A stretch of 64,000 nt of DNA from an uncultured Candidatus Bathyarchaeia archaeon (lineage in GTDB: Archaea; Thermoproteota; Bathyarchaeia; 40CM-2-53-6; DTDX01), in the NCBI GenBank assembly GCA_964608455.1, contig CAZSNM010000001.1:11030-75029 (forward strand). The letters are read 5' to 3'. Position 1 is the first letter of the stretch, and each line of letters opens with the position of its first letter. Shown here piece after piece: positions 3,446 through 43,374 of this stretch. The notes beneath the pieces were generated by a model, which saw only the letters and a list, made by a program, of their open reading frames with translations, did no database searches and was not told the DNA's origin. The position numbers were made by a program, and so were the translations under genes.

Positions 3446-3448
3446 TGA

Positions 3449-5712: not shown

Positions 5713-5737
5713 CTTCTTTCATTCTCTTGTTAACTAA

Positions 5738-6625
5738 TTATAAGCTTCCAGCAATAAATGCTATTAAACCTATAAACATAAATAAAAGAATTTTATTTTT
5801 TATAGTTTTAGCTTTTTCACTTGAATGATTTTTCATTAAGCTTAAAGATAAATAAATAAATCCTATATCTGAAAAAGCAACTATTGGAATATAAATTAAA
5901 GAAATGAGATTTAAGATTGCTGGAAGAAAACTTAAAGCTACTGCCGATAGAAAAAATAAGGTTGCTATAATTGAGGTTTTATAGGAGCCTAAAGTTGCAG
6001 CTAAAGTTTTTATACCTTTAATTTTATCTCCTTTAACATCAGCTATTCCCTTAATAATTTCTCTACCAGTATTTGCTAAAAAAGCCATTAAAGCAAAAAT
6101 CCAAAGTGTAAAATTCATATTGTTTACTGCGTAACCTCCATAAATAAATGGTAAGGCTACGCAAATGCTAACAATAAAATTCCCTAGCAAACCTGTTTTT
6201 TTACCTTTAGTATTATAGTAAACCATTAAAACCAATGAAATTAAAGCTATAATAAAACTTGATAAATTAAGCAATGCTGAAGATAAAATTCCTATTAAAA
6301 CACAAATAAATGTACAAATTAATGCTTCATTAGGTTTAATTAAACCTGATGGAATAGGTCTTTTAGGTTCATTTATTAAATCCACTTCTAAATCATAATA
6401 ATCATTAAATGCCATCGTACCAGCGGTTAAAAAGAAAGCTGTTAAAAAGCCTAGAGTAAAAGGTTTTAAACTTAATGTCCCTTTTAAAGCTATTAACTCT
6501 CCAATTATTACAGCTAACCCCATCATTAAACAATTAATTGGTCTAATTAATTTTATTAATCCAACTATTTTTTTAATCATTTTTATGCATCCTTTTTTAA
6601 TCAGCAAAACTTTTTTAAATTCCAC
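5738..6625 (-). CDS. UbiA-family prenyltransferase, likely digeranylgeranylglyceryl phosphate (DGGGP) synthase
   Basis: Polytopic membrane protein with the NDYYDLEVD Asp-rich motif. It sits adjacent to a geranylgeranyl reductase gene. Confidence 0.8.
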   Translation of the reverse strand: MEFKKVLLIKKGCIKMIKKIVGLIKLIRPINCLMMGLAVIIGELIALKGTLSLKPFTLGFLTAFFLTAGTMAFNDYYDLEVDLINEPKRPIPSGLIKPNEALICTFICVLIGILSSALLNLSSFIIALISLVLMVYYNTKGKKTGLLGNFIVSICVALPFIYGGYAVNNMNFTLWIFALMAFLANTGREIIKGIADVKGDKIKGIKTLAATLGSYKTSIIATLFFLSAVALSFLPAILNLISLIYIPIVAFSDIGFIYLSLSLMKNHSSEKAKTIKNKILLFMFIGLIAFIAGSL

Positions 6626-6682
6626 ATATATTTATTCTTAAAAATAAGCCATTTAAAATAGTTATTGAAAACCTTTTAAAGC

Positions 6683-7882: not shown

Positions 7883-7883
7883 A

Positions 7884-9695: not shown

Positions 9696-9705
9696 GCGTG
9701 AAAAA

Positions 9706-11448
9706 TTGGAAACTAATGAATTAAAAGAGCTTATTAAAAAATTTGCTTTATTAAATGCTGTAAAACATAATGGAAAAGCTGAGTTTAAATCTGTTTTAGG
9801 AAAGGTTTTAAGCGAAAAACCTGAGCTTAAATCATCTATTAAAGAATTAACAATTTTAGTTAAATCCATACTCGATGAAGTCAACAATCTTTCTTTAAAT
9901 GCTCAAATTAAATGCATTGAAGAAAAATGGCCCAATTTACTTTTAAAAGAAAAGGTTAAAGAAGAAAAAACCCTTCCACCTTTACCTAACGCTGAAAAAT
10001 ATCCTATTATTGTTACAAGATTTTCTCCAAATCCAGATTGCGTTCTTCATTTAGGTTCTTTAAGAGCTATAGTTCTTTCTCATGAATATGCTCGAATATA
10101 TAAAGGAAAATTTATTTTAAGATTTGAGGATACAGATCCAAGACTTAAAAGATCCTCCTTAAGGTTTTATGATGATATAAAAGAGGATTTGCTTTGGTTA
10201 AATTGTAAATGGGATGAAGAATATATTCAAAGCGATAGACTTCCAATCTATTATGAATATGCTGAAAAACTTATTAAGCTTGGAGGAGGCTATGTATGCA
10301 CTTGCACTAAAGAAGAATTTTTAAAAAAAATATCTATTGGTGAAGCTTGTACATGCAGAAACCTTTCTATAGAAGAGCATTTAGATCGATGGTATAAAAT
10401 GCTTGATGGAACCTTTAAGGAAGGAGAAGCAGTTGTTAGAGTCAAAACTGATTTAATGCATCCAAATCCTGCTGTAAGAGATTGGCCTGCACTTAGAATA
10501 ATTGATTCTAAAAAACACCCTCATCCTAGAGTTGGTGAAAAATATAGGGTTTGGCCACTATATAATTTTGCTTGCGGTTTAGATGATCATTTAATGAATA
10601 TAACGCATATAATAAGAGGTAAAGAGCATTACACTAATATGATTAGACAAAAATACTTATATGCTTATTTTGGTTGGAGTTATCCTGAAGCCATTCATTA
10701 TGGAAGATTAAAAATAGTAGGTGCTGAATTAAGCAAATCAAAAATTATTGCAAATGTTTCAAAAGGCTTTTTTAAGGGATTTGACGACCCAAGATTAGCT
10801 ACTTTAAAGGCTTTAAGAAGAAGGGGGATAACTCCTGAATGTTTAAAAAAACTTGTTTTAGAAATAGGTCCAAAACCTGTTGATGTAACTTTAAGCTGGG
10901 AAAATATTTATGCTATAAATAGAAAAATTATCGATCCAATTTGCAATAGATATTTTTGCGTTTTAAATCCAATATTGCTTATTATTAAAGATGTAAAAGA
11001 AAGTTTAATTGTTAAAATTCCTTTTCATCCAAGTTATCCTGAAAGAGGAGAAAAAATAACTGTAATTAAACCTGTAAATAATACTCTTGAATTGTTTATT
11101 TCAAAAAATGATTTATTTATTTTGCAAAAACATAAAATTATTAGGTTAATGGAGCTTTTTAATATTGAAATTGAATTTATTAATGAAACTAAGGTTTCAG
11201 CTAAATTTCATAGCACAACTTATGATGAAGCTAAAAAGCTTAAAGCTCCTTTAATACATTGGGTTCCATTATTAGAAAATTTAAATGTTGAAGTTATTAT
11301 GCCAAATGCGGAAAAACATACTGGAAAAGCTGAAATCGCACTCTCTAAAGAAAAAATTGGGAATATTGTTCAATTAGTTAGATTTGGCTTCGCTAGAATA
11401 GATGAAAAACTTGAAAATAAGATAATTTTATATTATAGTCATGAATGA
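9706..11448 (+). CDS. gltX: Glutamyl-tRNA synthetase (archaeal-type class I GluRS)
   Basis: Contains the class I HLGSLR (HIGH-like) motif and RFEDTDPRLKR. Size is 580 aa. Confidence 0.9.
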   Translation: METNELKELIKKFALLNAVKHNGKAEFKSVLGKVLSEKPELKSSIKELTILVKSILDEVNNLSLNAQIKCIEEKWPNLLLKEKVKEEKTLPPLPNAEKYPIIVTRFSPNPDCVLHLGSLRAIVLSHEYARIYKGKFILRFEDTDPRLKRSSLRFYDDIKEDLLWLNCKWDEEYIQSDRLPIYYEYAEKLIKLGGGYVCTCTKEEFLKKISIGEACTCRNLSIEEHLDRWYKMLDGTFKEGEAVVRVKTDLMHPNPAVRDWPALRIIDSKKHPHPRVGEKYRVWPLYNFACGLDDHLMNITHIIRGKEHYTNMIRQKYLYAYFGWSYPEAIHYGRLKIVGAELSKSKIIANVSKGFFKGFDDPRLATLKALRRRGITPECLKKLVLEIGPKPVDVTLSWENIYAINRKIIDPICNRYFCVLNPILLIIKDVKESLIVKIPFHPSYPERGEKITVIKPVNNTLELFISKNDLFILQKHKIIRLMELFNIEIEFINETKVSAKFHSTTYDEAKKLKAPLIHWVPLLENLNVEVIMPNAEKHTGKAEIALSKEKIGNIVQLVRFGFARIDEKLENKIILYYSHE

Positions 11449-11526
11449 TTTTAAAGGATTTTACGAAAAATTCATAAAGGAAATTGTGTAAAATGGTTAT
11501 AAAAAGGCTGATGAGAGTGAAGCAAA

Positions 11527-11913
11527 TTGTCTAAACCCTTTTATGTTAAATTTAATGTTCCAAAAGAGGTAGCTGACAAAGCCTATCAACTAGTTCAAGT
11601 TTCTAAGGGAACAGGAAAAATTAAGAAGGGAACTAATGAAACCACAAAATCTGTTGAAAGAGGATTAGCTAAATTGGTTTTAATAGCTGAGGATGTTGAT
11701 CCACCCCAAATAGTAGCGCATTTACCTTTATTATGCGAAGAAAGAAAAATTCCATATCTTTATGTTCCAAAAAAAAGCGAGTTAGGTAAAGCTTCAGGTT
11801 TAGAAGTAGATTGCTCTGCTGTTGCAATATTGGATTCTGGAGAAGCTTCTGAAACCCTTCAAGAGCTTATTAAAATAGCTAATGAATTAAGGGAGGGTAA
11901 AACTGCTAAATGA
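11527..11913 (+). CDS. rpl7ae: Ribosomal protein L7Ae
   Basis: [27 protein letters not shown] matches the L7Ae/L30e signature. TTG start. Confidence 0.95.
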
Positions 11914-12134
11914 GCAGCTCTAAAACTAAATCTGAGGAAGCGCCTACACCAGCTGAAGTAACTCAAATTATTGGTAGAACAGGAATAACTGGAGAAGTAA
12001 CCCAAGTTAGAGTTAGAATTCTTGAAGGAAAAGATAAAGGAAGAATATTAACTAGAAACGTTAAAGGTCCAGTAAAACTTGGCGACATTTTAATGCTTAG
12101 AGAAACTGAAAGAGAAGCTAAAAAAATAGCATAA
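11910..12134 (+). CDS. rps28e: Ribosomal protein S28e
   Basis: [41 protein letters not shown] is the S28e signature. Confidence 0.95.
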
Positions 12135-12159
12135 ACCTTTTTTAAAAAAGGGAAAAAAA

Positions 12160-12354
12160 ATGCCTAAAAGTTTTAAATGCTCTTTTTGCGGCAAACCTTT
12201 TCCACCAGCTAGAGGCTTAATGTTTGTTAAAAATGATGGATCAATATTTTATTTTTGCTCTAGAAAATGCAGAAGAAGCTTGCTTGAAATGAAAAGAGAT
12301 TCTAGAAAACTTAAATGGACTATTTATTATGGAAAGAAAGAACGAGGTAAATAA
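12160..12354 (+). CDS. rpl24e: Ribosomal protein L24e
   Basis: CSFCGKPFPPARGLMFVKNDGSIFYFCSRKC is the L24e zinc-ribbon motif. Confidence 0.95.
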   Translation: MPKSFKCSFCGKPFPPARGLMFVKNDGSIFYFCSRKCRRSLLEMKRDSRKLKWTIYYGKKERGK

Positions 12355-12413
12355 CGCTTCATTTTTATCTAAATCTTATGCTTTAAACATATAAAAATAT
12401 TAAGGTGTGTTAA

Positions 12414-14180
12414 TTGTCTTTAAGACAACCTATTGTAGTGGTGCTTGGTCATGTTGATCATGGAAAAACAACTTTACTAGATAAAATAAGGGGGACTTCT
12501 GTTGCAAGTAGAGAACCTGGAGCAATAACTCAATGGATAGGAGCCAGTTTAGTTCCAAAGGAAACCATTAAAGAAGTTTGTGGACCACTACTAGAAAAAT
12601 TTAAATTTCAAATTTTAATTCCAGGCCTATTATTTATAGATACTCCAGGCCATGAAACTTTTTCTAATTTAAGAAGAAGAGGGGGTTCAGCTTCAGATAT
12701 TGCAATATTAGTTGTTGATGTAACAAAAGGTTTTGAACCTCAAACTGTGGAATCGATAGAAATTTTAAAAGCTCGAAAAACACCATTTATGGTGGCAGCT
12801 AATAAGATAGATGCTATTCCAGGATGGAAATCTTACGCTAACCTTACTTTTCTTGAATCTTTAGAAAAGCAAAATGAAGAAGTAAAAATCGAGCTTGAAA
12901 ACAGAATTTACTCTTTAATAGGGGAACTTTCAAAATTTAATTTTAAATCAGATAGATTTGATAGAATAAAAGATTTTAGAACTCATGTAGCTATAGTTCC
13001 AACAAGTGCTAAAACAGGTGAAGGAATACCTGAATTGCTGGCTGTGCTTGTTGGTTTAACTCAAGCCTTTATGAAGGAAATTCTTAAAGTAACATCTGGA
13101 CCTGGTAAAGGAGCTGTTATTGAAGTTAAAGAGGAAGTTGGTTTAGGAGTAACCTTAAATACAATAATATATGATGGTATAATTAAAGTTGGAGATAAAA
13201 TAGTTGTTGGTGGAAAAGAAGGTGTAATAGAGACCCATGTAAAAGCTTTACTTTTACCTAAACCACTTGATGAAATTAGAGATCCTAGAGATAAATTCAT
13301 TAATGTTTCTGAAGTGGCAGCTGCAGCTGGAGTTAAAATTTCAGCTCCAAATCTTGAATCTGCTTTAGCAGGATCTCCAATATATGTTGTTCCTGAAAAT
13401 GAAGATAAACAAAAATATATTAAATTAATTGAAGAAGAAATTGGAAAGCTTAGAATAAATACAGATATTACAGGTGTTATTTTAAAAGCTGATACATTAG
13501 GATCCTTAGAAGCTTTAATTGATGCTTTAAAGCGTTTAAATATTCCTGTAAGAATAGCTGATGTAGGTGATGTTTCAAAAAGAGATGTTGTTGAAGCTGA
13601 GGTTGTTAAACAAAAAGATAAGTTTTTAGGTGTAGTTTTAGCTTTTAATATTAAACTTCTTCCTGATGCTGAGGAAGAAGCTGAAAAAGCTGAAATCCCA
13701 ATATTTAAATCTAACATAATATATAGGTTAATTGAAGATTATATTGAATGGGTTAAAAAGGAGAAAGCTACTGGAAAAGAAGCTGAACTTTCAAAATTAA
13801 TTAAACCTGGAAAAATTAAAATTCTTGAAGGTTATATATTTAGAAGAAGCAAACCAGCAATTGTAGGAGTAGAAATTTTAGAAGGAATAATTAAACCTAA
13901 ATATCCGCTTATAAATAAAGATGGAAAATCAATAGGAGAAATTTTAAGAATTCAAGATAAAGGGAAAGATATTCAAGAAGCTAAACCAGGAATGCAAGTA
14001 GCCATATCTATAGATAAAGGAATTGTTGGAAGAAACATTAATGAAGGAGATTTACTTTATGTAGCTGTTCCAGAGGAGCATGCACAATCCCTCCTAACTA
14101 AATTTAAAGAGGAATTAACTATTGAAGAGTTAAACCTACTAAAGGAAATATTAGAATTAAAATCTAAAAAAACATTATAA
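12414..14180 (+). CDS. infB: Translation initiation factor aIF5B (IF2-like GTPase)
   Basis: G1 motif GHVDHGKTTLLD and G3 motif DTPGHE. Size is 588 aa. Confidence 0.95.
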   Translation: MSLRQPIVVVLGHVDHGKTTLLDKIRGTSVASREPGAITQWIGASLVPKETIKEVCGPLLEKFKFQILIPGLLFIDTPGHETFSNLRRRGGSASDIAILVVDVTKGFEPQTVESIEILKARKTPFMVAANKIDAIPGWKSYANLTFLESLEKQNEEVKIELENRIYSLIGELSKFNFKSDRFDRIKDFRTHVAIVPTSAKTGEGIPELLAVLVGLTQAFMKEILKVTSGPGKGAVIEVKEEVGLGVTLNTIIYDGIIKVGDKIVVGGKEGVIETHVKALLLPKPLDEIRDPRDKFINVSEVAAAAGVKISAPNLESALAGSPIYVVPENEDKQKYIKLIEEEIGKLRINTDITGVILKADTLGSLEALIDALKRLNIPVRIADVGDVSKRDVVEAEVVKQKDKFLGVVLAFNIKLLPDAEEEAEKAEIPIFKSNIIYRLIEDYIEWVKKEKATGKEAELSKLIKPGKIKILEGYIFRRSKPAIVGVEILEGIIKPKYPLINKDGKSIGEILRIQDKGKDIQEAKPGMQVAISIDKGIVGRNINEGDLLYVAVPEEHAQSLLTKFKEELTIEELNLLKEILELKSKKTL

Positions 14181-14254
14181 ACCCGATAAATTTAAAAATA
14201 AGATTTAACATTTCCAAAGTATTCCATATATCATAACTAAAAAGGAAAGAGAAA

Positions 14255-14611
14255 ATGGTGAAGTTTAAAATTAATATTTCAGATCCAAAAACTGGTAAAA
14301 CAAGCTCTATAGAATTAGAAGATCTAAAAGCTCGACCACTAATAGGGCATGAAATAGGCGATATAATAGATGGTTCTTTAGTTAATTTACCTGGTAAAAA
14401 ACTAAAAATTACTGGAGGAAGCGATAAAAATGGCTTTCCAATGAGAAGCAGTGTTCATGGAGGAGGAAAAAAATATGTTATTTTATCTGGAGGAACAGGA
14501 TTTAATCAACAGCGTCCAGGTGAAAGAAGAAGAAAAATAGTAAGAGGTCGAATGATTACTGAAGAAACCTATCAAATAAACATGAAAATAATTGAAAGTG
14601 AAGAAAATTAA
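14255..14611 (+). CDS. rps6e: Ribosomal protein S6e
   Basis: KINISDPKTGKTSSIELED...ITGGSDKNGFPM is the S6e N-terminal signature. Confidence 0.9.
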   Translation: MVKFKINISDPKTGKTSSIELEDLKARPLIGHEIGDIIDGSLVNLPGKKLKITGGSDKNGFPMRSSVHGGGKKYVILSGGTGFNQQRPGERRRKIVRGRMITEETYQINMKIIESEEN

Positions 14612-14636
14612 ATTTTTAAGGAGGATCATTCATTAA

Positions 14637-14987
14637 ATGGAATTCAGAATCATAAATGAAATTTATAATCCATTAATAAAACGGAAAGAAGTTAAAGCTG
14701 AAGTTATTCATCAATCAGCTGGAACACCAGATAGATTTTCTTTAAGAAAAGAATTAGCTTCAAAACTTAATGAAGAATTAGAAAAACTTTATATAATTAA
14801 AATGGTTACTAAAACTGGCACAAATAAAACTATATGCGATATAGAAGTTTATGATAATAAAGAAACCGCTAAATTAATAATTCCAAAACATATTTTAATC
14901 AGAAATTTACCTCCTGAAGAAAGAAAAAAAGCTTTAGAAGAAAAGGAGAAAAAGAAAAAAGCTAAAATTGAGGAGTCCAAGAAATGA
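14637..14987 (+). CDS. rps24e: Ribosomal protein S24e
   Basis: NPLIKRKEVKAEVIHQSAGTPDRFSLRKELASKLN is the S24e signature. Confidence 0.9.
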   Translation: MEFRIINEIYNPLIKRKEVKAEVIHQSAGTPDRFSLRKELASKLNEELEKLYIIKMVTKTGTNKTICDIEVYDNKETAKLIIPKHILIRNLPPEERKKALEEKEKKKKAKIEESKK

Positions 14988-15163
14988 GCAGCAAAAAGCG
15001 TTTAATAAGCTCGCTTTATGAATATGATTATAAAGAGGGAAAAATAAAATTAAAAAACAAGAAATGCCCTAGATGCGGAAACATAATGGCTCTTCATAAA
15101 AATCCAGTTAAAAGATGGACATGCGGCTCCTGCAATTACACAGAATATATAAAGGAAACCTGA
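14984..15163 (+). CDS. rps27ae: Ribosomal protein S27ae (eS31, ubiquitin-less archaeal form). This gene is absent from the supplied ORF track because it is shorter than 60 aa.
   Basis: Manual translation gives MSSKKRLISSLYEYDYKEGKIKLKNKKCPRCGNIMALHKNPVKRWTCGSCNYTEYIKET*. It has the C4 zinc ribbon and the S27a C-terminal domain pattern. The ATG overlaps the S24e stop (ATGA). Confidence 0.85.
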   Translation: MSSKKRLISSLYEYDYKEGKIKLKNKKCPRCGNIMALHKNPVKRWTCGSCNYTEYIKET

Positions 15164-15508
15164 AGATAAGCTTCATTTTTAGGAAAAATCATGTTTAATT
15201 AAAATTACACATCTATTAAGCATTTTTAGATTTAAAGAAATTGAAGCTTTAGTTAATGTTATTTCACCCATGTTTGATTAATAATAATTTAATATGCTAT
15301 GGTTTTTCTAGGCCCGCCTCCATCTATATAATTTCATTTACAAATTTACAATTGATGAGAATAAATCTATAAGCAAAAGGATTACCTGAGGTTACTGCCT
15401 AAAACTCTGTAAAACCTCTTCATCATAAACCACTACCCGCATCACTTTATATTATTCTATGAAGGAAACAAGGCAAAAATCAAGAGCTTTAATAATGAAG
15501 TCGAGCAA

Positions 15509-21717: not shown

Positions 21718-22287
21718 TCACCTTTTATAAATTTTTAAAACTCTAATTGTAAGCATTGTTCCGATTAAAATTAATATTGCGCATAAAATAAATGTTTGTC
21801 TAAAACCTATTGTATCTGATAGAAAACCTCCAAGCCCAGGGCCAATTATCCATCCAAAATACCAAGTCATATTATATATGCCTATGGCTTCCCCCTTATG
21901 TTCCGATGGAACAGAATCTGTTATTAAAGCTACTCCTGAAACTCCTAAAGCTGCCCATGCTATACCTTCAATAGCTTGAATAATATACATACCTATTAAA
22001 GTTTTAGCTAAAGAATAGGAAAGAAAAACTATGAAAAATAAACTCATTGAAATTAATAAAATTAACTTAGAGCCTATTTTATCTGAAATTTTACCAAATA
22101 AAGGTGCTGCTACAGCCCCTCCAATAGAGCCTATTGTAAACACAACACCTATTTGTGTTTTAGACGCCCCTAAATCAGCTATAAACAACGATAAAATGGA
22201 GTAAATCATTCCAGAGCAAACTGTAAGTGGAAAAAGGGAAATGCAAATCCAGTAAACATTTCGTTTTGGCATAATAATCCCTCCCAA
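21718..22287 (-). CDS. Six-TM MFS-like half transporter (possible truncated MFS)
   Basis: MFS motif A-like FGKISDKIGSK between TM2 and TM3. At 189 aa it is half the size of a canonical MFS. Confidence 0.45.
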   Translation of the reverse strand: MGGIIMPKRNVYWICISLFPLTVCSGMIYSILSLFIADLGASKTQIGVVFTIGSIGGAVAAPLFGKISDKIGSKLILLISMSLFFIVFLSYSLAKTLIGMYIIQAIEGIAWAALGVSGVALITDSVPSEHKGEAIGIYNMTWYFGWIIGPGLGGFLSDTIGFRQTFILCAILILIGTMLTIRVLKIYKR

Positions 22288-25961: not shown

Positions 25962-28814
25962 TTAAAGCTTCTTTTCAGCTTCAATAATTAATTCAAATAA
26001 TTTATCGTTTACACGATTAACTTTTTGAGCTATAGATTCTACATCAGAAAGATTAAGTTTTCTTCCAGCTAAAGCGTAAACAGCTATTAAACCATATTTT
26101 CTATATAATTTAGCTGTCGCCTCAGCCTCTTTAATAATGTTTTTATTTCTAATTGATTTAGGTCCTTTTTTAAGCGCATTCAAAACCTCCTCCTCTGTAG
26201 TTGAAAGAATCCCAATAAGCTTTGAACCACATTTAGGACAAGAAAAGTTTTTAGGTAAATTTTTTATCAGCATAGTTTTAATAAATTTTTTGCAGGAAAC
26301 ACATATAAAAAGCTTTACTTCATTTAGTATTCTTGCTTTAGTTGCTTCTATAAGAATTCTCTTCATTTTTTCAGGAGGAATTAAATCTGTTTTTTGACCA
26401 ATTTTTTCTATTCCTAATCTAGCTATGGGTGTTGCTTCATTATTATCTTCTACAATTGCCAACTCTATTTCTCCATTTTTAATTTTGTTTAAAACTTCAA
26501 TTGTTTTTGAAACATCTAAGTCTTTATCATAAGTTTCCTTTAAAGCTTCCTTAAAAATAACTGTATCTTCAAAACTTTTAATTAATTGCTTTAAACTTAT
26601 TCTGCCTGCATCAACCCATTTTGAAAGAGCTCCAAAACGTCTTGCAACATGAATGGCTCTTCTCTTAAACAAACCTGTTTTGATAGTTGCTTCATTAATT
26701 AAATCAATTATCTTTTTTGTTTGAGAAAGCTTTTTTAAAATTTCTATGACTTTTCTTTTTCCATAACCTTCAATAGATTGAATAATTATTCTATATGCAT
26801 CTTGTTGAACTCCAACAGTTGAACCTAACTCTTCAGATAACATATGCCCTATAAGCCTAGCTAAGGTTCTATTAACCAGAGTTCCAAAATGGCATGTAAT
26901 AATTGTGTATTCATTCCAATCTTCAATTACAATTCTTTTATCCGTTGGAACAGGATAACCTTTTTCTATTTGTTCCACAGTTTCAGAAACAGCTTTTAAA
27001 ATTGTTTCTTCCTCAACAAAATATTCTTCAGCTATTTTTTTAACAATTTCCTTTAAGCTTCTTCCAGCTTTTAAATTCTCTTCAATAAAAGCTCTTATCG
27101 CACCAACTTCTTGGGAAACCTCAAATGGAACAGGAATTTCTTCTCCAACCCAGCTTGGAATAGCCCCTGTTGGATCATTTATGGGTTTAACATAAATTTT
27201 ATCTCCTCTAAAGCTTTTAATTAACCATGGACTCCCCTTCATAATAAATTTTGTTCCCGGTTCACCATATTCAGCTACAAATGCTTCATCTAAAACCCCT
27301 ATTGACGCATCTGAATCTTCATCAACAACTAAATATTGTTTTTCATCAGGAATCATCGACATTTCCCTAAAGTAATATTCATAAAGCTCCTTAATTTTTT
27401 TAGGCTTTAAGAAAACTTCATCATTAAAGGAAACCCATGCTAATCTTGGGTATCTTGAATGCATATATTCAAGCACCGCTTTAAGATCTTCTTCGGTTAA
27501 ATTTCTATATGGATAAGCTTCCTTAAACATTTCAAGCACCTCATTAAATGTCCAGCGTTTTTTTTGAAGAAGCAAACCTGCTATTTGATGGGTTAAAACA
27601 TCAAAGGGTTTCTCTGGAATTTTAACTTCCTCTAGACTTTCCTGGTAAACTCTTTTAACTATAACCATTGCCTCTAAAGCATCATCTGAATCTAAAGCTA
27701 TTATTGCTCCTTCAGCAATTCTTCCAACTTTATGTCCGCTTCTTCCAATTCTTTGAATTAACCTTGTAACTTGTCTTGGACTCATATATTGAATTACATA
27801 ATCTATTTTGCCTATATCTATACCTAACTCTAAAGAGCTTGTGCAAACAAGCCCCTTTAACTCTCCCTTTTTTAAGCTTTTTTCAGCTGTTACTCTAACA
27901 AGTTTAGCTAAGGAACCATGATGAATAGATATTGGGAAATCAACATCCCAAACCTTAAATCTGCTAGCTAAAACTTCCGCTATAGCTCTTGTATTGGTAA
28001 ATAAAAGAACAGATTCATGAGATTTAATTAAATTTTTCATTATTCTAAGCCTTGCTGCTACTTCAGGATGGGTATAAAGCTTAGCAGCTAATTTATAATC
28101 TTCATCATTAACTGAAGGAAGCAACAATTTAATTTTAGTAGTTCTTTTTATGGGCACTTTCACTATTTCAATCGATCTATTTGTTCCAGCTAAAAATTTA
28201 GCTACGGCTTCTGGACTTCCTATAGTAGCTGATAATCCAATTAATTGAAAATCACTTTTAGTTATCCATCTTAACCTTTCTAAAGCTAGAGAAAGCTGGC
28301 TTCCACGCTTATCCTCAGCTAATTCATGAACTTCATCTATAATAACGTATTTAACGCTTTTTAAATGCTTCTTCATTACTTTACCAACAAGCAAAGCTTG
28401 AAGCGTTTCAGGAGTTGTAATCAACATATGTGGGGGAGATTTAGCCTGTAAGCTTCTTTCTTTTACATCAGTATCGCCATGCCTAACCGAAACTTTTAAT
28501 CCAAGTTTTTTGCACCACCATTCTAGTCTATCTAGCATATCTCGATTTAAAGCTCTTAAAGGCGTTATATAAAGAATATTTATTCCAGGTGAATTATCAC
28601 CTTTAACAAAAAAATTATTTAAAACTGGTAAAACTGCCGCCTCGGTTTTACCAGTTGCTGTTGGAGCTATAAGAAGAACATTTTTTCCTTCAAGAATTAA
28701 AGGAATAGCTTTTTTTTGAGCCTCTGTAGGAAATGAAAACTTTCTTTCTTTAATTGCTTCTTGAATAGGTTTAATAAATAATGAAAAAACGTTTATGGCT
28801 TCAGTTTTCTCCAT
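25962..28814 (-). CDS. lhr: Lhr-like large superfamily-2 helicase (DEAD/DEAH box), with C-terminal zinc finger
   Basis: Walker A APTATGKTEAA, DEVHEL, and helicase C motifs. The 950-aa protein has a C-terminal CVSCKK...CPKCGSK. Confidence 0.9.
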   Translation of the reverse strand: MEKTEAINVFSLFIKPIQEAIKERKFSFPTEAQKKAIPLILEGKNVLLIAPTATGKTEAAVLPVLNNFFVKGDNSPGINILYITPLRALNRDMLDRLEWWCKKLGLKVSVRHGDTDVKERSLQAKSPPHMLITTPETLQALLVGKVMKKHLKSVKYVIIDEVHELAEDKRGSQLSLALERLRWITKSDFQLIGLSATIGSPEAVAKFLAGTNRSIEIVKVPIKRTTKIKLLLPSVNDEDYKLAAKLYTHPEVAARLRIMKNLIKSHESVLLFTNTRAIAEVLASRFKVWDVDFPISIHHGSLAKLVRVTAEKSLKKGELKGLVCTSSLELGIDIGKIDYVIQYMSPRQVTRLIQRIGRSGHKVGRIAEGAIIALDSDDALEAMVIVKRVYQESLEEVKIPEKPFDVLTHQIAGLLLQKKRWTFNEVLEMFKEAYPYRNLTEEDLKAVLEYMHSRYPRLAWVSFNDEVFLKPKKIKELYEYYFREMSMIPDEKQYLVVDEDSDASIGVLDEAFVAEYGEPGTKFIMKGSPWLIKSFRGDKIYVKPINDPTGAIPSWVGEEIPVPFEVSQEVGAIRAFIEENLKAGRSLKEIVKKIAEEYFVEEETILKAVSETVEQIEKGYPVPTDKRIVIEDWNEYTIITCHFGTLVNRTLARLIGHMLSEELGSTVGVQQDAYRIIIQSIEGYGKRKVIEILKKLSQTKKIIDLINEATIKTGLFKRRAIHVARRFGALSKWVDAGRISLKQLIKSFEDTVIFKEALKETYDKDLDVSKTIEVLNKIKNGEIELAIVEDNNEATPIARLGIEKIGQKTDLIPPEKMKRILIEATKARILNEVKLFICVSCKKFIKTMLIKNLPKNFSCPKCGSKLIGILSTTEEEVLNALKKGPKSIRNKNIIKEAEATAKLYRKYGLIAVYALAGRKLNLSDVESIAQKVNRVNDKLFELIIEAEKKL

Positions 28815-30975: not shown

Positions 30976-31407
30976 ATGAAAAGGGAGTATCCTCTTCAAC
31001 CTTTAGTTGGCGTAACCGTATTAATTATTAATGAGAAAGAAGAAGTACTTCTTGTAAAAAGACGGAATGAACCTGGAAAAAATTTATGGTCTCTTCCAGG
31101 TGGGTTAATTGAGCTTGGAGAATCAATTAAAAAAACTGCTGAAAGAGAAGTTAAAGAAGAAACAGGCTTAAAAATTAAAGTTAGAAAGCTTTTAGATACA
31201 TTGGATGTCATTGTTAAAGATAAAAGCAATAAGATAAGATTTCATTATGTTTTAATAGTATTTTTAGCTTCATTAATTGGGGGACAACTAAAACTTTCTA
31301 ACGAACATTATGCTATTAAATGGGTTAGTATTAAAAAGGCTGAAACTTATAAACTTACAAAAACTTGTAGAAGGATATTAAGGAAATTTAAAAAATTAAA
31401 TTCTTAA
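30976..31407 (+). CDS. NUDIX hydrolase
   Basis: Nudix box GGLIELGESIKKTAEREVKEETGL. Confidence 0.85.
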   Translation: MKREYPLQPLVGVTVLIINEKEEVLLVKRRNEPGKNLWSLPGGLIELGESIKKTAEREVKEETGLKIKVRKLLDTLDVIVKDKSNKIRFHYVLIVFLASLIGGQLKLSNEHYAIKWVSIKKAETYKLTKTCRRILRKFKKLNS

Positions 31408-36805: not shown

Positions 36806-37459
36806 TTGTCAAAAAGGATAATCAAAAGTTGGAATGGTTCAGACTCTATATTTACAAGATTTAGTGAGAAAATCCGCGGTAGAAAACCAACTCTTAAAGA
36901 AAAAGTTTCTCAAGCCATTTATCGATTAAAAGTTCAAAGAACTAAGCTGGAAAATGCTGCTGCTAGAATAGAAAATCATGATAAATCTTTATTTGAAAAA
37001 ATTGTTAAAGCTCAAATGGCTAAAGACTCTGCTAGAGCCATAATGTATGCTAATGAATGCGTGGAATTAAGAAAAATTGCAAAAACAACTTTACGTTGTC
37101 AATTAGCTCTTGAAAAAGTTCTTTTAAGGCTTGAGACAATTAAAGATTTTGGTGATGTTGCATCGCTTATGGCGCCTGTAGTAGATGTTGTTCAAGCAAT
37201 AAAAACTGAAATTTCAGGTATTATGCCTGAAGTAGCTTTTGAACTTGGTGAAGTTGGAGAAGTGTTAGGGGACGTTGTAACTGAAATGGGTGAAGCTGCT
37301 GGAATAGGCGAGGAGGACCTTCATCCATCAAGTGAAGCTATGAAAATAATTGAGGAAGCTAACGCTGTAGCTGAGCAAAAAATGAAGGAAAAATTCCCAG
37401 AATTACCTTTACAAGTTGCACCAAATCTAGAGGAATCTTCAGCTACAAAATTAAAGTAG
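36806..37459 (+). CDS. ESCRT-III (Snf7/CdvB-family) paralog
   Basis: Conserved ESCRT-III core shared with the two other paralogs (SQAIYRL...YANEC(A/V)E(I/L)RKIAK...QLALEKV). The C-terminus has a KFPELP proline motif (MIM2-like). TTG start behind GGAGGT. Confidence 0.8.
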   Translation: MSKRIIKSWNGSDSIFTRFSEKIRGRKPTLKEKVSQAIYRLKVQRTKLENAAARIENHDKSLFEKIVKAQMAKDSARAIMYANECVELRKIAKTTLRCQLALEKVLLRLETIKDFGDVASLMAPVVDVVQAIKTEISGIMPEVAFELGEVGEVLGDVVTEMGEAAGIGEEDLHPSSEAMKIIEEANAVAEQKMKEKFPELPLQVAPNLEESSATKLK

Positions 37460-37470
37460 AGGTTAAAAAA

Positions 37471-38145
37471 TTGAATATTGAAGAAGCCAAAAATAATATT
37501 GGAAAAGAAGTTTTTGACTCTAGAGGAAGAAAAATTGGTAGATTAATATCTTTTTGCACAGACCTTAGGGGGAACCCTATTAAATTCTTAATAGAGCTTG
37601 TTACTGGTGACTTCATTCAATGTACTGTTGAGCAGCTTCAGCAAAAGGAAAACGTTTTAACTTATCTTTATTCATGGGAAGTTAATGCTAATAACTTAAA
37701 GAATAGATTTGATTTAGTTTCAAGAAGAATTAAAGCTTTAGAAGAGCTTTATGCCAATGGTGAAATAGAAAAAGAAATTTATTTAGAGCTTAAAAACAGG
37801 CATGAAAGCTCTTTGGAAGAATTAGAGGAGCAAAGAAAACTTTTAATAGATAAACTTTATGAAAGAAAAACCAAACTGGATCTTAAAATAAAAGCTTTGG
37901 AACTTTTCTTAGCTAATAGCAAAATGCAGCAATCTTCAGGAGAAATTAGTGGGGAAGCCTTTAAAGTAGCTCTAGAATCAATAAATATTGGATTGAAAAG
38001 AGCAATCTCAGAAAGAAATTATATTAAAGAAATGGTTGACTTCTTAAGCAATGTTAAAATTTCAAGCGTTACTTCCTTAAAAACTCCAGGTTTAAAGCCT
38101 CTAACTGAAGATGTTGTTTTAGTTAAGTTAAAAGAACCAACTTAA
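37471..38145 (+). CDS. cdvA: CdvA-like protein (PRC-barrel + coiled coil)
   Basis: The N-terminus NIGKEVFDSRGRKIGRLISF is PRC-barrel-like and is followed by a long heptad-rich region. The gene is positioned directly upstream of the wH-containing ESCRT-III and Vps4, as in cdvABC operons. TTG start. Confidence 0.65.
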   Translation: MNIEEAKNNIGKEVFDSRGRKIGRLISFCTDLRGNPIKFLIELVTGDFIQCTVEQLQQKENVLTYLYSWEVNANNLKNRFDLVSRRIKALEELYANGEIEKEIYLELKNRHESSLEELEEQRKLLIDKLYERKTKLDLKIKALELFLANSKMQQSSGEISGEAFKVALESINIGLKRAISERNYIKEMVDFLSNVKISSVTSLKTPGLKPLTEDVVLVKLKEPT

Positions 38146-38160
38146 AAGGAGGATTAAACT

Positions 38161-38937
38161 ATTTCAATAATTCGAAAAATAAGCAGTAAATTTAAACCTA
38201 CACCATTAAAAGAAAAGATTTCCCAAGCGATTTATAGGCTTGATGCTCAAAAAGAAAAGCTTGAACAAATGAGTTTTCTTCTTCAACAAAGAGATAGGGA
38301 AATGTTTCAAAAATGTATTGAAGCTCAATTTGCTAGAGATATTCCAAGAGCTAGAATTTATGCTAATGAATGTGCTGAAATAAGAAAAATTGCTAGAATA
38401 GTATTAAGCAGTCAATTAGCTTTAGAAAGAGTTATTTTAAGGCTTCAAACAATCGAGCAGTTTGGAGAAGTTCTTACTCAAATAGCACCTGTAATAGATG
38501 TGGTTGAGGAAATGAAAGATAAAGTATCAGGCTTAATTCCTGAAGTTGCTAATGAACTTGATCAAGTAAATTCAATGCTTAGAGATATGAGTTTAGAAGC
38601 TGGAGAAATCGAATCTGAAAATATAGATGTTGAAGCAGCTAATGAGGAAGCTAAAAAAATAATGTTGGAATCCATGGCTATTGCTGAAGAAAAAATGAAA
38701 GAAACATTTCCAGATATTAAAGATTTACAAATGAGTAAAATGAGGGTCATTCCAATTTCTGAAGGGGGAGAAGATTTAAAAAGAATGAATCTTGAAGAAC
38801 TTGTTTTAGAATATATTAAAAGCAACAATGGTTACTTAAGCATTTCTAAATGCGCTTCAACATTAGGTGTTTCACCAAAAAAAATTAAGGAAACTGTAGA
38901 GAAATTAAAAAACAATGGGAAAATAATTTTTGAGTAA
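38161..38937 (+). CDS. cdvB: CdvB (ESCRT-III with C-terminal winged-helix domain). The N-terminus is probably extended upstream of the ATG at 38269 used by the ORF track.
   Basis: ESCRT-III core plus a C-terminal wH-like segment, LEELVLEYIKSNNGYLSISKCASTLGVSPKKIKETVEKLKNNGKIIFE. In-frame sequence upstream of the ATG (ISIIRKISSKFKPTPLKEKISQAIYRL) aligns with the N-termini of both paralogs. AGGAGGA lies 8 nt before an ATT codon at 38161. Confidence 0.7.
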   Translation: MSIIRKISSKFKPTPLKEKISQAIYRLDAQKEKLEQMSFLLQQRDREMFQKCIEAQFARDIPRARIYANECAEIRKIARIVLSSQLALERVILRLQTIEQFGEVLTQIAPVIDVVEEMKDKVSGLIPEVANELDQVNSMLRDMSLEAGEIESENIDVEAANEEAKKIMLESMAIAEEKMKETFPDIKDLQMSKMRVIPISEGGEDLKRMNLEELVLEYIKSNNGYLSISKCASTLGVSPKKIKETVEKLKNNGKIIFE

Positions 38938-38939
38938 AG

Positions 38940-40085
38940 GTGATTTATAAAATGGTTTTATCTGCTTCTGAAGAGCTTGAGAAAATGGCTGCTAAATATG
39001 CTAATGAAGCAATTCAATTAGATGGGCAAGGTTCAAAAGGAATGGCTATTTCACGCTATCAAAGAGCTATAGAAATTCTTTTAAAATTAACCTCTTTATA
39101 CCCTGACTCTCCCCAAACCAAAGTTTACTTAACTAGGATAGAAGCCTATCAAAAAAGGATTAAAGAATTAAGGGAATCACCAGTTTCTTTAGGAAGTCAA
39201 AGTTTTGAAGCAGCAACATTTAATCAACTTGTTATTTCTGAAAAACCTAATGTTAAATGGAGTGATATAGCAGATTTAGAGGAGGCTAAAAAAGCGATAG
39301 AGGAATCTATTATTTTCCCAGTTAAAAGACCTGATTTATTTCCTTTAGGTTGGCCAAGAGGCATCCTCTTTTTTGGTCCGCCTGGATGCGGAAAAACATT
39401 GCTTGCAGCTGCTGTAGCTACAGAAATAGATGCAGCATTTTATTGTGTTGACTCTGCCTCAATAATGTCTAAGTGGCTTGGAGAATCAGAGAAAAATGTA
39501 GCACAGCTTTTTGCTGAAGCACGAAATAAAGCCTCCTCCGGTCAACCAGCAATAATATTTCTTGATGAAATAGATTCTTTAATTGGTAAAAGAAGCAATG
39601 AAATTGGTGGAGAAATTAGAACTAGGAACCAGTTTTTAAAGGAGATGGATGGACTTCTAGATAAAAAGAAAAATCTTCATGTTTATGTAATTGGGGCAAC
39701 AAATAAACCTTGGGCTTTAGATGATGCATTTATAAGAAGATTTCAAAAAAGAATTTACATTCCCCTTCCAGATTATAATGCTAGACTTGAACTCTTTAAA
39801 ATTTATACAAGAGAAATTAAGCTTTCTCCAGAAGTTGACCTTAAATATCTAGCTAAAATTACAGAAGGTTATTCAGGAAGCGATATTAGAGATATTATTC
39901 AAGCAGCTCAGTTAGAAGTTGTTAGAGAATTTTTTGAAAAAGGAAATCCCAATGATAAACACGCTCTTCCAAAACCTGTAAGCATGGGAAATTTTATTAA
40001 TGCTTTAAGAAAAAGAAAACCAAGTGTCTCCTTTAATTTAACCAAAAATTATCTTTCTTGGTTTGAGGTTTATGGAGCAATATGA
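38940..40085 (+). CDS. cdvC: Vps4-like AAA+ ATPase (CdvC). The true start is possibly the ATG at 38952.
   Basis: N-terminal MIT domain (EELEKMAAKYANEAIQLD...AIEILLKL). Walker A GPPGCGKTLLA and Walker B IIFLDEIDS. Confidence 0.92.
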   Translation: MIYKMVLSASEELEKMAAKYANEAIQLDGQGSKGMAISRYQRAIEILLKLTSLYPDSPQTKVYLTRIEAYQKRIKELRESPVSLGSQSFEAATFNQLVISEKPNVKWSDIADLEEAKKAIEESIIFPVKRPDLFPLGWPRGILFFGPPGCGKTLLAAAVATEIDAAFYCVDSASIMSKWLGESEKNVAQLFAEARNKASSGQPAIIFLDEIDSLIGKRSNEIGGEIRTRNQFLKEMDGLLDKKKNLHVYVIGATNKPWALDDAFIRRFQKRIYIPLPDYNARLELFKIYTREIKLSPEVDLKYLAKITEGYSGSDIRDIIQAAQLEVVREFFEKGNPNDKHALPKPVSMGNFINALRKRKPSVSFNLTKNYLSWFEVYGAI

Positions 40086-40708
40086 AAAGAGGAGGGTTAA
40101 AATTGTTTAAAGAAAGAAAATCTTTTACGGAAAAATTAAGAGAATCCATTCATCCCACACCTTTAAGAAAAAAAATTTCTTTAACGTTAACCTCATTAAA
40201 AATTCAATTGAAAAGATTGGAGAATGCAGCTTATAGACTTGAGCAAAGAGATAAAATTCTTTATGGAAAATGTGTTTCAGCCTTGCAAAAAGGTGATAAA
40301 TATTTAGCTTCTCTTTACGCTAATGAATGTGCTGAAATAAGAAAAATTGCTAAAATAACTTTAACAAGTCAATTAGCTTTAGAAAAAGTAACTTTAAAAC
40401 TTGAAACAATAAGAGACTTTGGTGATATAGCTTACTCAATGAATTCAGTTACATCTATAATTGGAATGTTAAAAGATGGATTAAGAAACTTAATGCCTGA
40501 CATTTCTATGAAACTTGATGAAGTAAATGAAGATTTGCAAAGTTTAGTTATTGAAATGGGAGAAACAACTGATCAAGGGATAGATTTGGAAAGTGCAAGT
40601 GAAGATTCTAGAAAAATAATTGAAGAAGCAACCATTGTAGCTGAGCAAAAAATGAAGGAAAAATTCCCAGAGCTGCCTGTAATAGCAGCAAAAGAAACAA
40701 AAATTTGA
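40082..40708 (+). CDS. ESCRT-III (Snf7/CdvB-family) paralog
   Basis: Same conserved core as the other paralogs. The C-terminus AEQKMKEKFPELP is identical to that of the 36806 paralog. The start overlaps the Vps4 stop. Confidence 0.8.
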   Translation: MKRGGLKLFKERKSFTEKLRESIHPTPLRKKISLTLTSLKIQLKRLENAAYRLEQRDKILYGKCVSALQKGDKYLASLYANECAEIRKIAKITLTSQLALEKVTLKLETIRDFGDIAYSMNSVTSIIGMLKDGLRNLMPDISMKLDEVNEDLQSLVIEMGETTDQGIDLESASEDSRKIIEEATIVAEQKMKEKFPELPVIAAKETKI

Positions 40709-42050
40709 ACCTTAATGCTTTTCCCTATTTTTGTATAAACTCCTAAGGTTTTTTGAATTTTAAATTCCTCAAATTCTTTATTCTGTTTAGCATCATCATT
40801 AAAAAGTAATAATTTTCCATAAACTCCATCATGACCGCTAACATATTTTATTTCATTATTTCTTATCTTTAATATAACCTCAACTATTCGCTCATTTGTA
40901 ACTTTAATTAACTCATCTTTTGAAGCATTCAATAAAACATTTATTTCATTTTTAAATTTTTTAATTAAGCTCCAATATTCGCTCCATACTGTTTGCGAAT
41001 AAACAATTTAACTTATATACTTTAGCTATTATCTCCATTAAAGGAATAAGATGCTTAAATGGAATATACTCTTTTGGAATAAAACTTTCAGGTCTATCTG
41101 CAAGCTCTTCAACTCTTTGTAAAACACCAATAGTTAATTTTCTTCTGCATTTTGGACAAATATTATTAACTTTTATAGCTTCCTTCGGGTGAAAGCTAAC
41201 ATTGCATTTTCTATGGCCTGAAAAATGATATTTACCTGCTTCCGGAAAAATTTCCCCGGTCATAACAAGTTTTGATTTATCCTTATTTTTTATAGCTTCA
41301 TAAATTTCTTTAAATGAAATTTTATTAACTTTAAAACTGTAAATTCCCTTCCTAATCTTAAAGGGTTGGATGTATGAGAATCTGAAAAAGATACAAGCGT
41401 ATATTTATCAAGCTTACTTATTCTAAAAGCCATTGAAGGATCGCTTGAAAGGCCTGTTTCAAGAGCATAAATATGTTTTGATTTTTCTTGAAAACATTCC
41501 TCAATACTATTAAAACCTGATTTGAAACCTAAAACTCCAAACCATGGTGTAAAATAATGAGCTGGAATTATCAAAATATTTTTTGAAATGCTCATTAAAA
41601 TTTCTACAAATTCCATGCAATTCATTTCATTAAAGGTTGGTCATCCATCAGCTTTTAAATCACCAAACATTTCAAGTTTTTCATTAATTTGATCTACTAT
41701 CTCAAAGTTTTCAGCTAAAATTAAATTATGAACCCTTCTAATTACTCCATTAAATTTATAAATAATTGCATACTTCTGCGGAGAGAATAAATAAACTTCT
41801 CTCCCCCTCTAGTTTTAAAAATTCCTTCCCCATCAACTTCAAAGAGATTAGCTTTTAATTCTTTTAACCATTTTGGATGAGTAAAATCACCAGTTCCAAG
41901 CATATTAATTCCTTTTAATTTAGCATTTTCCTCTAAAATTATTAATTGTAATGTCTTTGCTTGCTGCACGACTAAGAGGAGAGTGAATATGAAGATCAGA
42001 ATAAATTAAACTCAATTCTTCATCAAACCAATTGAACCGCTAAAATTTAA
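40709..42050 (-). pseudogene. Disrupted endonuclease Q-like PHP-domain nuclease gene (frameshifted into at least 4 reading-frame pieces)
   Basis: Minus-strand translation gives ...YSDLHIHSPLSRAASKDIT in one frame, then LEENAKLKGINMLGTGDFTHPKW in another. Further pieces follow: IPAHYFTPWFGV...SDSHT, then a zinc-finger piece NICPKCRRKLTIGVLQRVEEL, then ...SGHDGVYGKLLLF. Together these resemble EndoQ-type proteins broken by frameshifts. No canonical start codon precedes DLHIHS. Confidence 0.5.
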
Positions 42051-42108: not shown

Positions 42109-43374
42109 TTATGGGAATAACCCAAGTTTTACATGAGCATCAGCAACCCTACTTATAGCTAGCATGTAGGCCGCTGTTCTCATGCTTACCTTTTCTTTTT
42201 TAGAAATTTCCAAAACATCATTAAAGGCTTTAACCATTCGTTCTTCAAGTCTTCTATTAACTTCTTCTTCAGACCATCTATCCCTGTTTAGATTTTGAAC
42301 CCATTCAAAATAACTGACTGTAACTCCTCCACTATTGGCTAAAATATCTGGAATTGCTAATATTCCTCTATTATATAGGATGTCATCTGCTTCAAGTGTT
42401 GTTGGACCATTAGCTCCTTCAGAAATTATTTTAGCTTTTATTTTATGAGCATTATCTTTAGTAATCACATTTTCCATAGCTGCAGGAACAAGAATATCGC
42501 ATTCAAGCTCTAAAAGCTCCTCATTAGTAATTTTTTTACTTCCATCAAATCCTACAACAGATCCGGTCTTCTTTTTATATTTAAGAACTTCATCTGGGTC
42601 TAATCCATTAGAACTTAATATTCCTCCCTTAGAATCGCTAACAGCTATTATTTTACATCCCATTTCATGTAAGATTTTTGCTGCCCAAAAACCCACATTT
42701 CCATATCCTTGAACAGCAACTGTTGCTCCTTTTAAACTTAAACCTAAATGCTTAGTTGCTTCTCTAGCGCATATAGCAACGCCCCTTCCTGTAGCTGATT
42801 CTCTACCATATGAACCACCTAACTCTACAGGTTTTCCTGTAACAACTTCTGGAACAGCATAACCTTTAAGGCTACTATATGTATCCATTATCCAAGCCAT
42901 TACTTGAGCATCAGTTCCCATATCTGGTGCAGGCACATCTTTAAATGGTCCTATCTCATCCATAATCATAGCTGTATATCTTCTAGTTAATCTTTCCAAT
43001 TCTCCCTTAGAAAGTTTTTTAGGATCGCATACAACACCTCCTTTAGCTCCCCCATATGGAATATCTACAACAGCTGTTTTAAAAGTCATCCACATTGCAA
43101 GCGCTTTAACTTCATCTAAATCCACGTTTGGATGATATCTTATTCCGCCTTTATATGGGCCTCTCCACATATTATGCTGAACTCTATAGCCTGTAAATAC
43201 CTTTACTTTACCATCATCCATTCTAACTGGAACTGAAACGATTAAAACCCTTCTTGGATGCTTAAGTTGCTCTATAACATCATCACTTATTCCAATTCTT
43301 TTAGCTACTCTTTCTATTTGTTTCACAGCTTCTTCAAAAGGATTTACCTTAATAGTAGTTGTATTTACACTCAT
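42109..43374 (-). CDS. gdhA: Glutamate dehydrogenase
   Basis: GGSYGRESATGRGV and VQGYGNVG (Rossmann). Size is 421 aa. Confidence 0.93.
   Translation of the reverse strand: MSVNTTTIKVNPFEEAVKQIERVAKRIGISDDVIEQLKHPRRVLIVSVPVRMDDGKVKVFTGYRVQHNMWRGPYKGGIRYHPNVDLDEVKALAMWMTFKTAVVDIPYGGAKGGVVCDPKKLSKGELERLTRRYTAMIMDEIGPFKDVPAPDMGTDAQVMAWIMDTYSSLKGYAVPEVVTGKPVELGGSYGRESATGRGVAICAREATKHLGLSLKGATVAVQGYGNVGFWAAKILHEMGCKIIAVSDSKGGILSSNGLDPDEVLKYKKKTGSVVGFDGSKKITNEELLELECDILVPAAMENVITKDNAHKIKAKIISEGANGPTTLEADDILYNRGILAIPDILANSGGVTVSYFEWVQNLNRDRWSEEEVNRRLEERMVKAFNDVLEISKKEKVSMRTAAYMLAISRVADAHVKLGLFP

Follow-up and report, generated by a model that had tools for sequence, protein, structure and literature searches.

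Evidence for a recently decayed unitary pseudogene of the endonuclease Q family beside the cdv cluster of a Bathyarchaeia-labelled lineage

Organisation of the locus

The DNA analysed here, the window, is a stretch of 64,000 nucleotides from an AT-rich (30% GC) lineage whose aIF5B is 89-92% identical to proteins of metagenome-assembled genomes (MAGs) labelled Candidatus Bathyarchaeia/Bathyarchaeota. Its coding density is 91%, counting only open reading frames (ORFs) of at least 90 aa, and the sole large non-coding stretch is a 1.4-kb remnant on the minus strand, between a glutamate dehydrogenase (GDH) gene and a convergent cdv cluster. Two gaps of 500 bp were considered as further pseudogenes and rejected, since small ribosomal-protein genes lie inside them. 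No tRNA or Rfam features were found in the window, and a scan of the window for sigma-70 promoters and terminators was uninformative because the host is archaeal. The features of the locus are listed below, with lesions described relative to P0001, the intact endonuclease Q (EndoQ) orthologue on a sister contig (L001), and with residue equivalents given in the numbering of PfuEndoQ.

42109..43374, minus strand: glutamate dehydrogenase gene, upstream neighbour, intact, 421 aa
42016..42108, minus strand: upstream intergenic region adjoining the end of the GDH gene, with the AT-rich element TTTTTAAATTTTA approximately 30-40 nt ahead of the TTG; near-identical in the intact sister
40725..42015, minus strand: whole remnant, very probably an EndoQ-family pseudogene; TTG start at 42015-42013, ancestral stop position TAG at 40727-40725; colinear with L001:10001-11290
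41939..42015, minus strand: piece 1 (MSLIYSDLHIHSPLSRAASKDITINN); H8 and H10 are represented by the His codons at 41991-41989 and 41985-41983
41935..41938, minus strand: lesion 1, T4 versus T3 in the orthologue (+1); L001 10078, window 41938
41789..41810, minus strand: lesions 2 and 3, +2 in the GGGGAGAGA stretch (41810-41801) and -1 T (T3 versus T4, 41791-41789), net +1; events at window 41803 and 41791
41766..41788, minus strand: short piece ILSAEVCN in the third frame, Glu equivalent to E76 kept; P0001 has FILSAEVCN
41764..41765, minus strand: lesion 4, TT versus T in the orthologue (+1); alignment event at window 41765
41641..41643, minus strand: lesion 5, in-frame TGA versus CGA (Arg; equivalent to R114 of the EGRP motif of PfuEndoQ), a C>T transition
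41337..41640, minus strand: rest of the PHP domain, with PAHYFTPW (equivalents of H139, T142 and W144), the ALETGLS pocket and SFSDSHT (equivalents of D193 and H195)
41333..41336, minus strand: lesion 6, T4 versus T5 in the orthologue (-1); alignment event at window 41336
41007..41332, minus strand: Zn-binding domain piece (GHRKC...CPKC), H-C-C-C
41005..41006, minus strand: lesion 7, TT versus T in the orthologue (+1); alignment event at window 41006
40743..41004, minus strand: C-terminal helical domain piece (...GHDGVYGK...)
40742..40743, minus strand: lesion 8, -2 (AA) between 40743 and 40742, within the PIP-type motif (QKTLEEFI in the intact orthologue)
36806..40708, plus strand: cdv cluster, downstream and convergent, encoding CdvB/Snf7, CdvA, CdvB-like, Vps4/CdvC and CdvB-like proteins, all intact (Pfam hits precomputed for identical or orthologous proteins)

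The three CdvB-like genes of the cluster are paralogues. Beyond lesion 8, the open frame of the remnant continues into the convergent CdvB-like gene up to 40573. The longest fragment of the window copy has 147 codons, and the JGI gene callers report four EndoQ fragments as ORFs of 75, 111, 100 and 119 aa. From an alignment of the upstream regions of the window, L001 and a further sister contig (L086), the AT-rich element upstream of the TTG is a putative promoter.

Relationship to endonuclease Q

Read from 42015 to 40725 on the minus strand, the remnant is a full-length EndoQ homologue split over three reading frames. Joined conceptually, its pieces give 430 residues that match PfuEndoQ (5zb8_A) end to end in a phmmer search against the PDB (E = 9.4e-59), with query residues 3-404 aligned to residues 4-384 of the 400-residue chain. 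The reconstruction also matches positions 3-373 of the 374 in the NCBIfam profile TIGR00375 (371 positions; E = 2e-60, 205.1 bits). The curated cutoff is 326.6 bits, and neither this score nor those of the intact close homologues P0001 (217.5), P0003 (226.4) and P0016 (197.9) reach it; the low values therefore reflect a divergent clade rather than decay. Despite such sub-cutoff scores, NCBI names the members of this clade 'endonuclease Q family protein', and many of the 7999 homologues returned from a search of 5.8 billion proteins carry that name. A Pfam scan assigned no family to the reconstruction or to intact P0001, and is uninformative as the scanned set has no usable model; PF27218 appears among precomputed Pfam data. 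An earlier note on this DNA had described an EndoQ-like PHP plus zinc-finger protein from the peptides DLHIHS...LKGINMLGTGDFTHPKW, SDSHT, CPKCRRKL and GHDGVYGK. All four lie on the minus strand, the profile and structure-sequence searches bear out the identity, the proposed span of 40709-42050 agrees with that of the remnant, and the placement beside the cdv cluster is correct.

The likeness to PfuEndoQ (PDB 5ZB8, 7K30-7K33; PMC4357722, PMC5961232) is colinear over the full length and extends to the domain order, PHP, Zn-binding and C-terminal helical. The PHP metal ligands H8, H10, E76, H84, H139 and D193, together with H195, are all encoded in the window translation and in P0001, although in the window their codons are spread over different reading frames and four fragments; the equivalent of the W144 wedge is encoded in the remnant as well. 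Besides the lesions of the window copy, there are differences that concern the whole clade. While PfuEndoQ has a four-cysteine Zn site (C249, C252, C268, C271; ligand list, Zn site and PIP motif from PMC5961232), a histidine takes the place of C249 as first ligand in the window copy and in each of the close intact homologues, P0001-P0016. The resulting H-C-C-C site could still bind Zn and is a trait of the clade rather than of decay. The pocket residues L168 and N191 of PfuEndoQ are Thr and Phe in the clade. At the C-terminus, the intact orthologues P0001-P0016 carry a PIP-type motif, QK[TSN]LE[ED]F[ILF] (QKTLEEFI in P0001, compared to QRTLLQYI in PfuEndoQ), which is not intact in the window. 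PfuEndoQ comes from the Thermococcales as opposed to a Bathyarchaeia-labelled lineage, and in the literature searched we found no biochemical assay of cleavage 5' of dU, dI or AP sites for any member of the clade. There is no second EndoQ copy within the window, where the only other match is a weak, Zn-finger-like one in an Lhr-type helicase.

Disabling lesions

Base-by-base alignment to the syntenic orthologue in L001 places seven indel events (+1, +2, -1, +1, -1, +1, -2) and one CGA>TGA nonsense codon in the window copy, and the seven indels produce five visible frame switches. The earlier proposal of at least three frameshifts was thus right in that the gene is interrupted but not in its count. 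Moreover, the break that had been placed near 41630 as a frameshift is the nonsense codon TGA at 41643-41641, and the gene, described as lacking a canonical start, does have a start codon, the TTG at 42015-42013, with which the intact orthologues of four lineages also begin.

The alignment to L001 spans 21 kb and contains 44 indel events. Eight of them are located in the 1.29-kb EndoQ gene or at its end, and seven of these are within coding sequence. The remaining indels are intergenic, multiples of three or located a few codons from gene ends. The sole other frame break in a real gene over these 21 kb is in a NUDIX gene and belongs to L001, not to the window, and no other gene of at least 150 aa in the aligned region has an internal frame-breaking indel. 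Between genes, the indel-to-substitution ratio in the same alignment is approximately 0.3, with some 30 indel events and 96 substitutions. Given this high local ratio, the eight lesions are compatible with recent inactivation.

Broken and intact copies in related lineages

Three further assemblies of the window lineage (L083, L084 and L085) were identified through exact-protein look-ups of neighbouring genes. A 12.6-kb contig of JGI 3300017406 and a 9.3-kb contig of JGI 3300022546 differ from the window by 5 and 2 SNPs, respectively, with no indel differences, and both have all eight lesions. A Logan contig of 5.2 kb (SRR7540202; window 46766-41546) has 2 SNPs, likewise no indel differences, and carries the five lesions in the stretch that it covers. 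Since SNPs separate these assemblies, they are not copies of one assembly. At the assembly level, the population from which at least these three assemblies derive is fixed for the lesions.

The intact syntenic orthologue P0001 (429 aa) is encoded on L001, the 188-kb contig Ga0080004_1200881 of JGI 3300005860 from Washburn Spring, Yellowstone. L001 aligns colinearly to window 30714-51996 with 96.3% identity, and the EndoQ genes themselves are 94-96% identical at the DNA level. Both contigs share the gene order of RFC large and small subunits, glutamate dehydrogenase and EndoQ, followed by the convergent genes for CdvB-like, Vps4/CdvC, CdvB-like, CdvA and Snf7/CdvB proteins. P0001 and the genes of identical length in L086-L090 resemble the window copy in their slot between the GDH and CdvB-like genes, their orientation and their TTG start, and differ in being uninterrupted. 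Overall, an intact gene of 427-429 aa occupies the same GDH-EndoQ-CdvB slot in three related lineages: the Washburn-type sister clade (L001 and, from five further samples, L086-L090, mutually 99.5% identical), a more distant species at 81-83% DNA identity (L091-L094), and a third species (L098). EndoQ homologues at 72% identity likewise come from MAGs labelled Candidatus Bathyarchaeia/Bathyarchaeota. A search of genome contigs with P0001 gave identities of at most 55% among the matches listed, and an exact 24-mer search of metagenome contigs returned the L001 contig only.

Disabling lesions, set against an intact orthologue in the same chromosomal position and reproduced in independent data, are what identify a unitary pseudogene. 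We are therefore highly confident that 42015-40725 on the minus strand is a unitary pseudogene of the endonuclease Q family that sits in its ancestral position, is specific to this lineage and decayed recently. Pseudogenisation had been one of two options put forward in the earlier note, and it is borne out by lesions shared with three other assemblies and by intact syntenic orthologues in relatives.

An identity of about 96% is near the usual species boundary, and the window and the L001 contig reach 96.3% over their 21 kb of alignment. The remnant might thus be one allele of a polymorphism, with intact and broken alleles coexisting in a single species-level population and perhaps being maintained by a varying need for EndoQ. 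In line with this, several samples yield the intact allele and several different ones the broken allele. However, the broken allele is tied to a distinct background, with flanks that differ from the sister by approximately 3% everywhere. Furthermore, no EndoQ closer than that of the sister (the best match, at 89%) was found among 5.8 billion proteins, so that an intact allele on a window-type background is absent from that search. We regard a polymorphism as unlikely; even so, it refines the explanation of the locus as a unitary pseudogene and does not contradict it.

Coding potential of the fragments

Could the locus still be functional, either via programmed recoding (frameshifting or stop read-through) or as separately translated domain fragments? 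Candidate fragments exist, in particular a 100-aa Zn-finger ORF (40961-41263) and a 119-aa C-terminal ORF (40573-40932), and it is as four fragments that JGI has called the genes. The upstream region is conserved, and the ratio of nonsynonymous to synonymous changes (N:S) on the branch, 20:15, is below the neutral expectation. This ratio is, however, equally accounted for by recent inactivation. Recoding would require five frame switches in both directions plus read-through of a stop, and the sites have no slippery motif in common. As for separate fragments, the PHP metal ligands are spread across four of them, every orthologue is one uninterrupted protein, and the last frameshift ruins the C-terminal PIP-type motif and sends the ORF antisense into the neighbouring gene. 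Any single frame yields at most about a quarter of EndoQ; with frames this short and the PHP active site split over four pieces, no functional enzyme results. Continued function is accordingly very improbable. Reassignment of TGA was also considered and rejected, because TGA is a normal stop codon that terminates 18 of the 64 window ORFs.

Sequencing and assembly errors

The other option in the earlier note was that of assembly errors associated with homopolymers of an A/T-rich genome; EndoQ would then be intact in the organism, and its breaks would be artefacts of sequencing or assembly. Five of the seven indels are indeed the gain or loss of a single T. In addition, gene splits by a single lesion are known in related metagenome contigs (a NUDIX gene in L001, an rSAM gene in L094 and a PLD-like gene in L097), showing that isolated artefacts or polymorphisms exist in such data. 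By contrast, every covered lesion of the window copy recurs in the three assemblies described above, which derive from other samples and assemblers and differ by SNPs only. The EndoQ indels are located in runs of 1-5 nt, whereas none of the 784 homopolymer runs of 5-8 nt in other window ORFs is broken; the lesions also include a substitution to TGA, a +2 and a -2; and the density of eight lesions per 1.29 kb compares to none within other genes of at least 150 aa over 21 kb. An explanation by errors is effectively refuted and has almost no probability left.

A model for the loss of EndoQ

Returning to the unitary pseudogene, the function of its ancestor can be proposed from published work on EndoQ (PMC4357722, PMC5961232, PMC4858679). 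By homology, the ancestral protein would have combined a PHP-domain two-metal nuclease with a Zn-binding domain, a C-terminal helical domain and a C-terminal PCNA-interaction motif. An enzyme of this kind would be expected to capture a flipped-out deaminated base (dU, dI) in a pocket beside the active site and to nick directly on the 5' side of such bases and of AP sites; the Zn-binding and C-terminal domains would stabilise it on DNA, and PCNA would be expected to stimulate it. In this lineage the gene has gathered the seven small indels and the nonsense mutation, probably leaving dU and dI repair to other pathways encoded elsewhere in the genome. No gene for other deaminated-base repair enzymes (UDG, EndoV, NucS) is present in the window, according to Pfam scans of approximately 40 ORFs. 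A precedent for the dispensability of EndoQ may be provided by Methanosarcina acetivorans, whose EndoQ, in the account given in PMC6202378, acts alongside ExoIII and UDG. This enzyme, likened here by description, is also archaeal and part of a redundant set that counters uracil, as may be the case in the window organism; it differs in being encoded by a functional gene and in belonging to a euryarchaeal mesophile.

Selection and age of the loss

Pairwise dN/dS relative to the sister is 0.33 for EndoQ, compared to 0.02-0.21 for 18 neighbouring genes, with similar dS values of approximately 0.10. Polarisation with 11 outgroups assigns 21 derived amino-acid changes to the window copy and 7 to P0001, several of them at otherwise invariant positions. 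At the nucleotide level, 35 changes in EndoQ belong to the window and 15 to the sister, which is not significantly above the 1.45-fold asymmetry seen generally in the flanking sequence (Fisher p = 0.17). Once an outgroup is added, the pseudogene branch has an N:S of 20:15 and the branch of the intact sister one of 9:6, both elevated over the flanks, where the counts are 65:163 and 44:118. Branch-specific relaxation of selection, which dN/dS had been expected to reveal, was dropped as an argument because N:S is raised on both branches. That it is elevated on the intact branch too suggests that EndoQ is weakly constrained in this group even when intact. Pseudogenisation is therefore proven by the lesions and not by omega.

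The decay looks recent: the catalytic-ligand codons are all recognisable, identity to the sister is still 94-96%, and an N:S of 20:15 is far from neutral. From a synonymous divergence of about 0.06 on the window branch and the observed nonsynonymous count, we roughly estimate that inactivation dates to no more than about the final quarter of that branch since the split from the sister.

Substitution pattern and implications

The branch leading to the window is longer than that of its sister. Outside the pseudogene, 318 polarised substitutions fall on the window lineage and 220 on the sister in window 30.6-52.1 kb; with an independent outgroup contig, the counts in window 2.4-15.2 kb are 206 and 126. 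For the latter (aIF5B) region, L097 was discarded as an outgroup because it is sister-like there, the contig being mosaic or chimeric, and L100 was used instead. Combined, the two regions (approximately 32 kb) give 524 versus 346, a 1.51-fold excess (p = 2e-9) that is even along the sequence and also seen at synonymous sites (163 versus 118). The excess is greatest for A:T>G:C transitions (324 versus 189, 1.71-fold; Fisher p = 0.035 against the other classes), which is the signature expected of unrepaired hypoxanthine, the lesion through which EndoQ was reportedly discovered. It is conceivable, if improbable, that the loss of EndoQ has raised the mutation rate of this lineage and made it a natural 'deamination-repair knockout'. 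Arguing against such a link, the pseudogene seems to be younger than most of the branch, and the 1.5-fold longer branch could also stem from gene flow between sister and outgroup, from differing generation times or from parsimony artefacts.

EndoQ is credited with an important role against heat-accelerated base deamination, and the pseudogene indicates that at least one archaeal lineage of hot springs can do without it, while its sisters retain the gene. The founding paper placed EndoQ in Thermococcales and some methanogens only (PMC4357722); the homologues collected here document a large divergent clade in Bathyarchaeia- and DPANN-labelled MAGs, with an H-C-C-C Zn site and a C-terminal PIP-type motif. 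Taken alone, the decay of this gene is an ordinary lineage-specific loss. As a pair, the EndoQ-dead and EndoQ-intact lineages, at approximately 96% identity, constitute a natural experiment on mutation rate or spectrum.

Substitutions in the window lineage and its sister

With the pseudogene (the broken EndoQ-family gene) left out, the window lineage has accumulated 524 lineage-specific substitutions compared to 346 in the EndoQ-intact sister, a 1.5-fold excess (p = 2e-9). These counts cover window positions 2400-15200, compared with the relative L095 and the outgroup contig L100, and 30600-52100, compared with the sister contig L001 from Washburn Spring and the outgroup contig L093. The excess is seen at synonymous sites as well, and is greatest for A:T>G:C transitions. 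Within the genotype itself, three of the five SNPs that separate the window from L083 (the JGI 3300017406 assembly, which carries all the EndoQ lesions) over the 12.6 kb compared are located in the pseudogene or just upstream (41780, 42088 and 42121), a placement that is consistent with relaxed constraint, albeit with tiny counts.

Gene differences in related contigs

The NUDIX hydrolase and glutamate dehydrogenase loci of L001 differ from those of the window. At L001 20605-21035 (window equivalent 30976-31407), a NUDIX hydrolase gene that is unbroken in the window and in L093 (143 aa) is split into ORFs of 64 and 68 aa, due to a 1-nt difference within a T6/T7 run; the EndoQ-intact sister therefore either has a broken gene of its own, or the contig contains an assembly error. 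Glutamate dehydrogenase (L001 8642-9904) is annotated as a 370-aa ORF with a further, distinct ORF of 34 aa, compared to 420-421 aa in the window (42109-43374) and in another sister-lineage contig, L086, and a 3-nt indel is present in the N-terminal region of the gene.

The relatives L094 and L097 are parts of one 84 kb contig (ENA ERZ27247228 k141_550799). It matches the sister clade at 99.6% identity around aIF5B, but around EndoQ it is outgroup-like, at only approximately 86% identity. This combination indicates either that k141_550799 was assembled as a chimera or that the genome itself is recombinant. A separate, outgroup-like aIF5B contig (L100) is also present in that sample. Split genes are present in both parts: a radical-SAM gene in L094 (117 + 205 aa) and a PLD-like gene in L097 (67 + 143 aa).

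Distribution of the EndoQ family

Homologue searches gave 7999 matches, with at least 562 loci among species-representative genomes, and EndoQ-family proteins are plentiful in MAGs labelled Bathyarchaeia, Aenigmatarchaeota, Woesearchaeota and Nanoarchaeota. In the 2015 discovery paper (PMC4357722) the distribution was Thermococcales and some methanogens, a far narrower range than this.

Other genes in the window

21718-22287, minus strand, half-length MFS transporter ORF (189 aa; its Pfam match is confined to the model's first half)
25962-28814, minus strand, Lhr-type DEXH helicase (PRK13767, 550 bits)
36806-40708, cdv cluster: three paralogous CdvB/ESCRT-III-like genes (36806-37459, 38269-38937 and 40082-40708), interleaved with CdvA and Vps4/CdvC

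The C-terminal approximately 50 residues of the helicase (notably 26100-26240) weakly resemble the EndoQ zinc-finger / 'GVLQRVEELADRP' segment (tblastn E = 0.03), a likeness that may be the source of the "DNA helicase UvrD" mislabels on some EndoQ homologues. A window-specific truncation of the MFS ORF is ruled out by its conserved length of 184 aa in L095-L097. The CdvB/ESCRT-III-like paralogues share 68-73% DNA identity across 260-360 nt.
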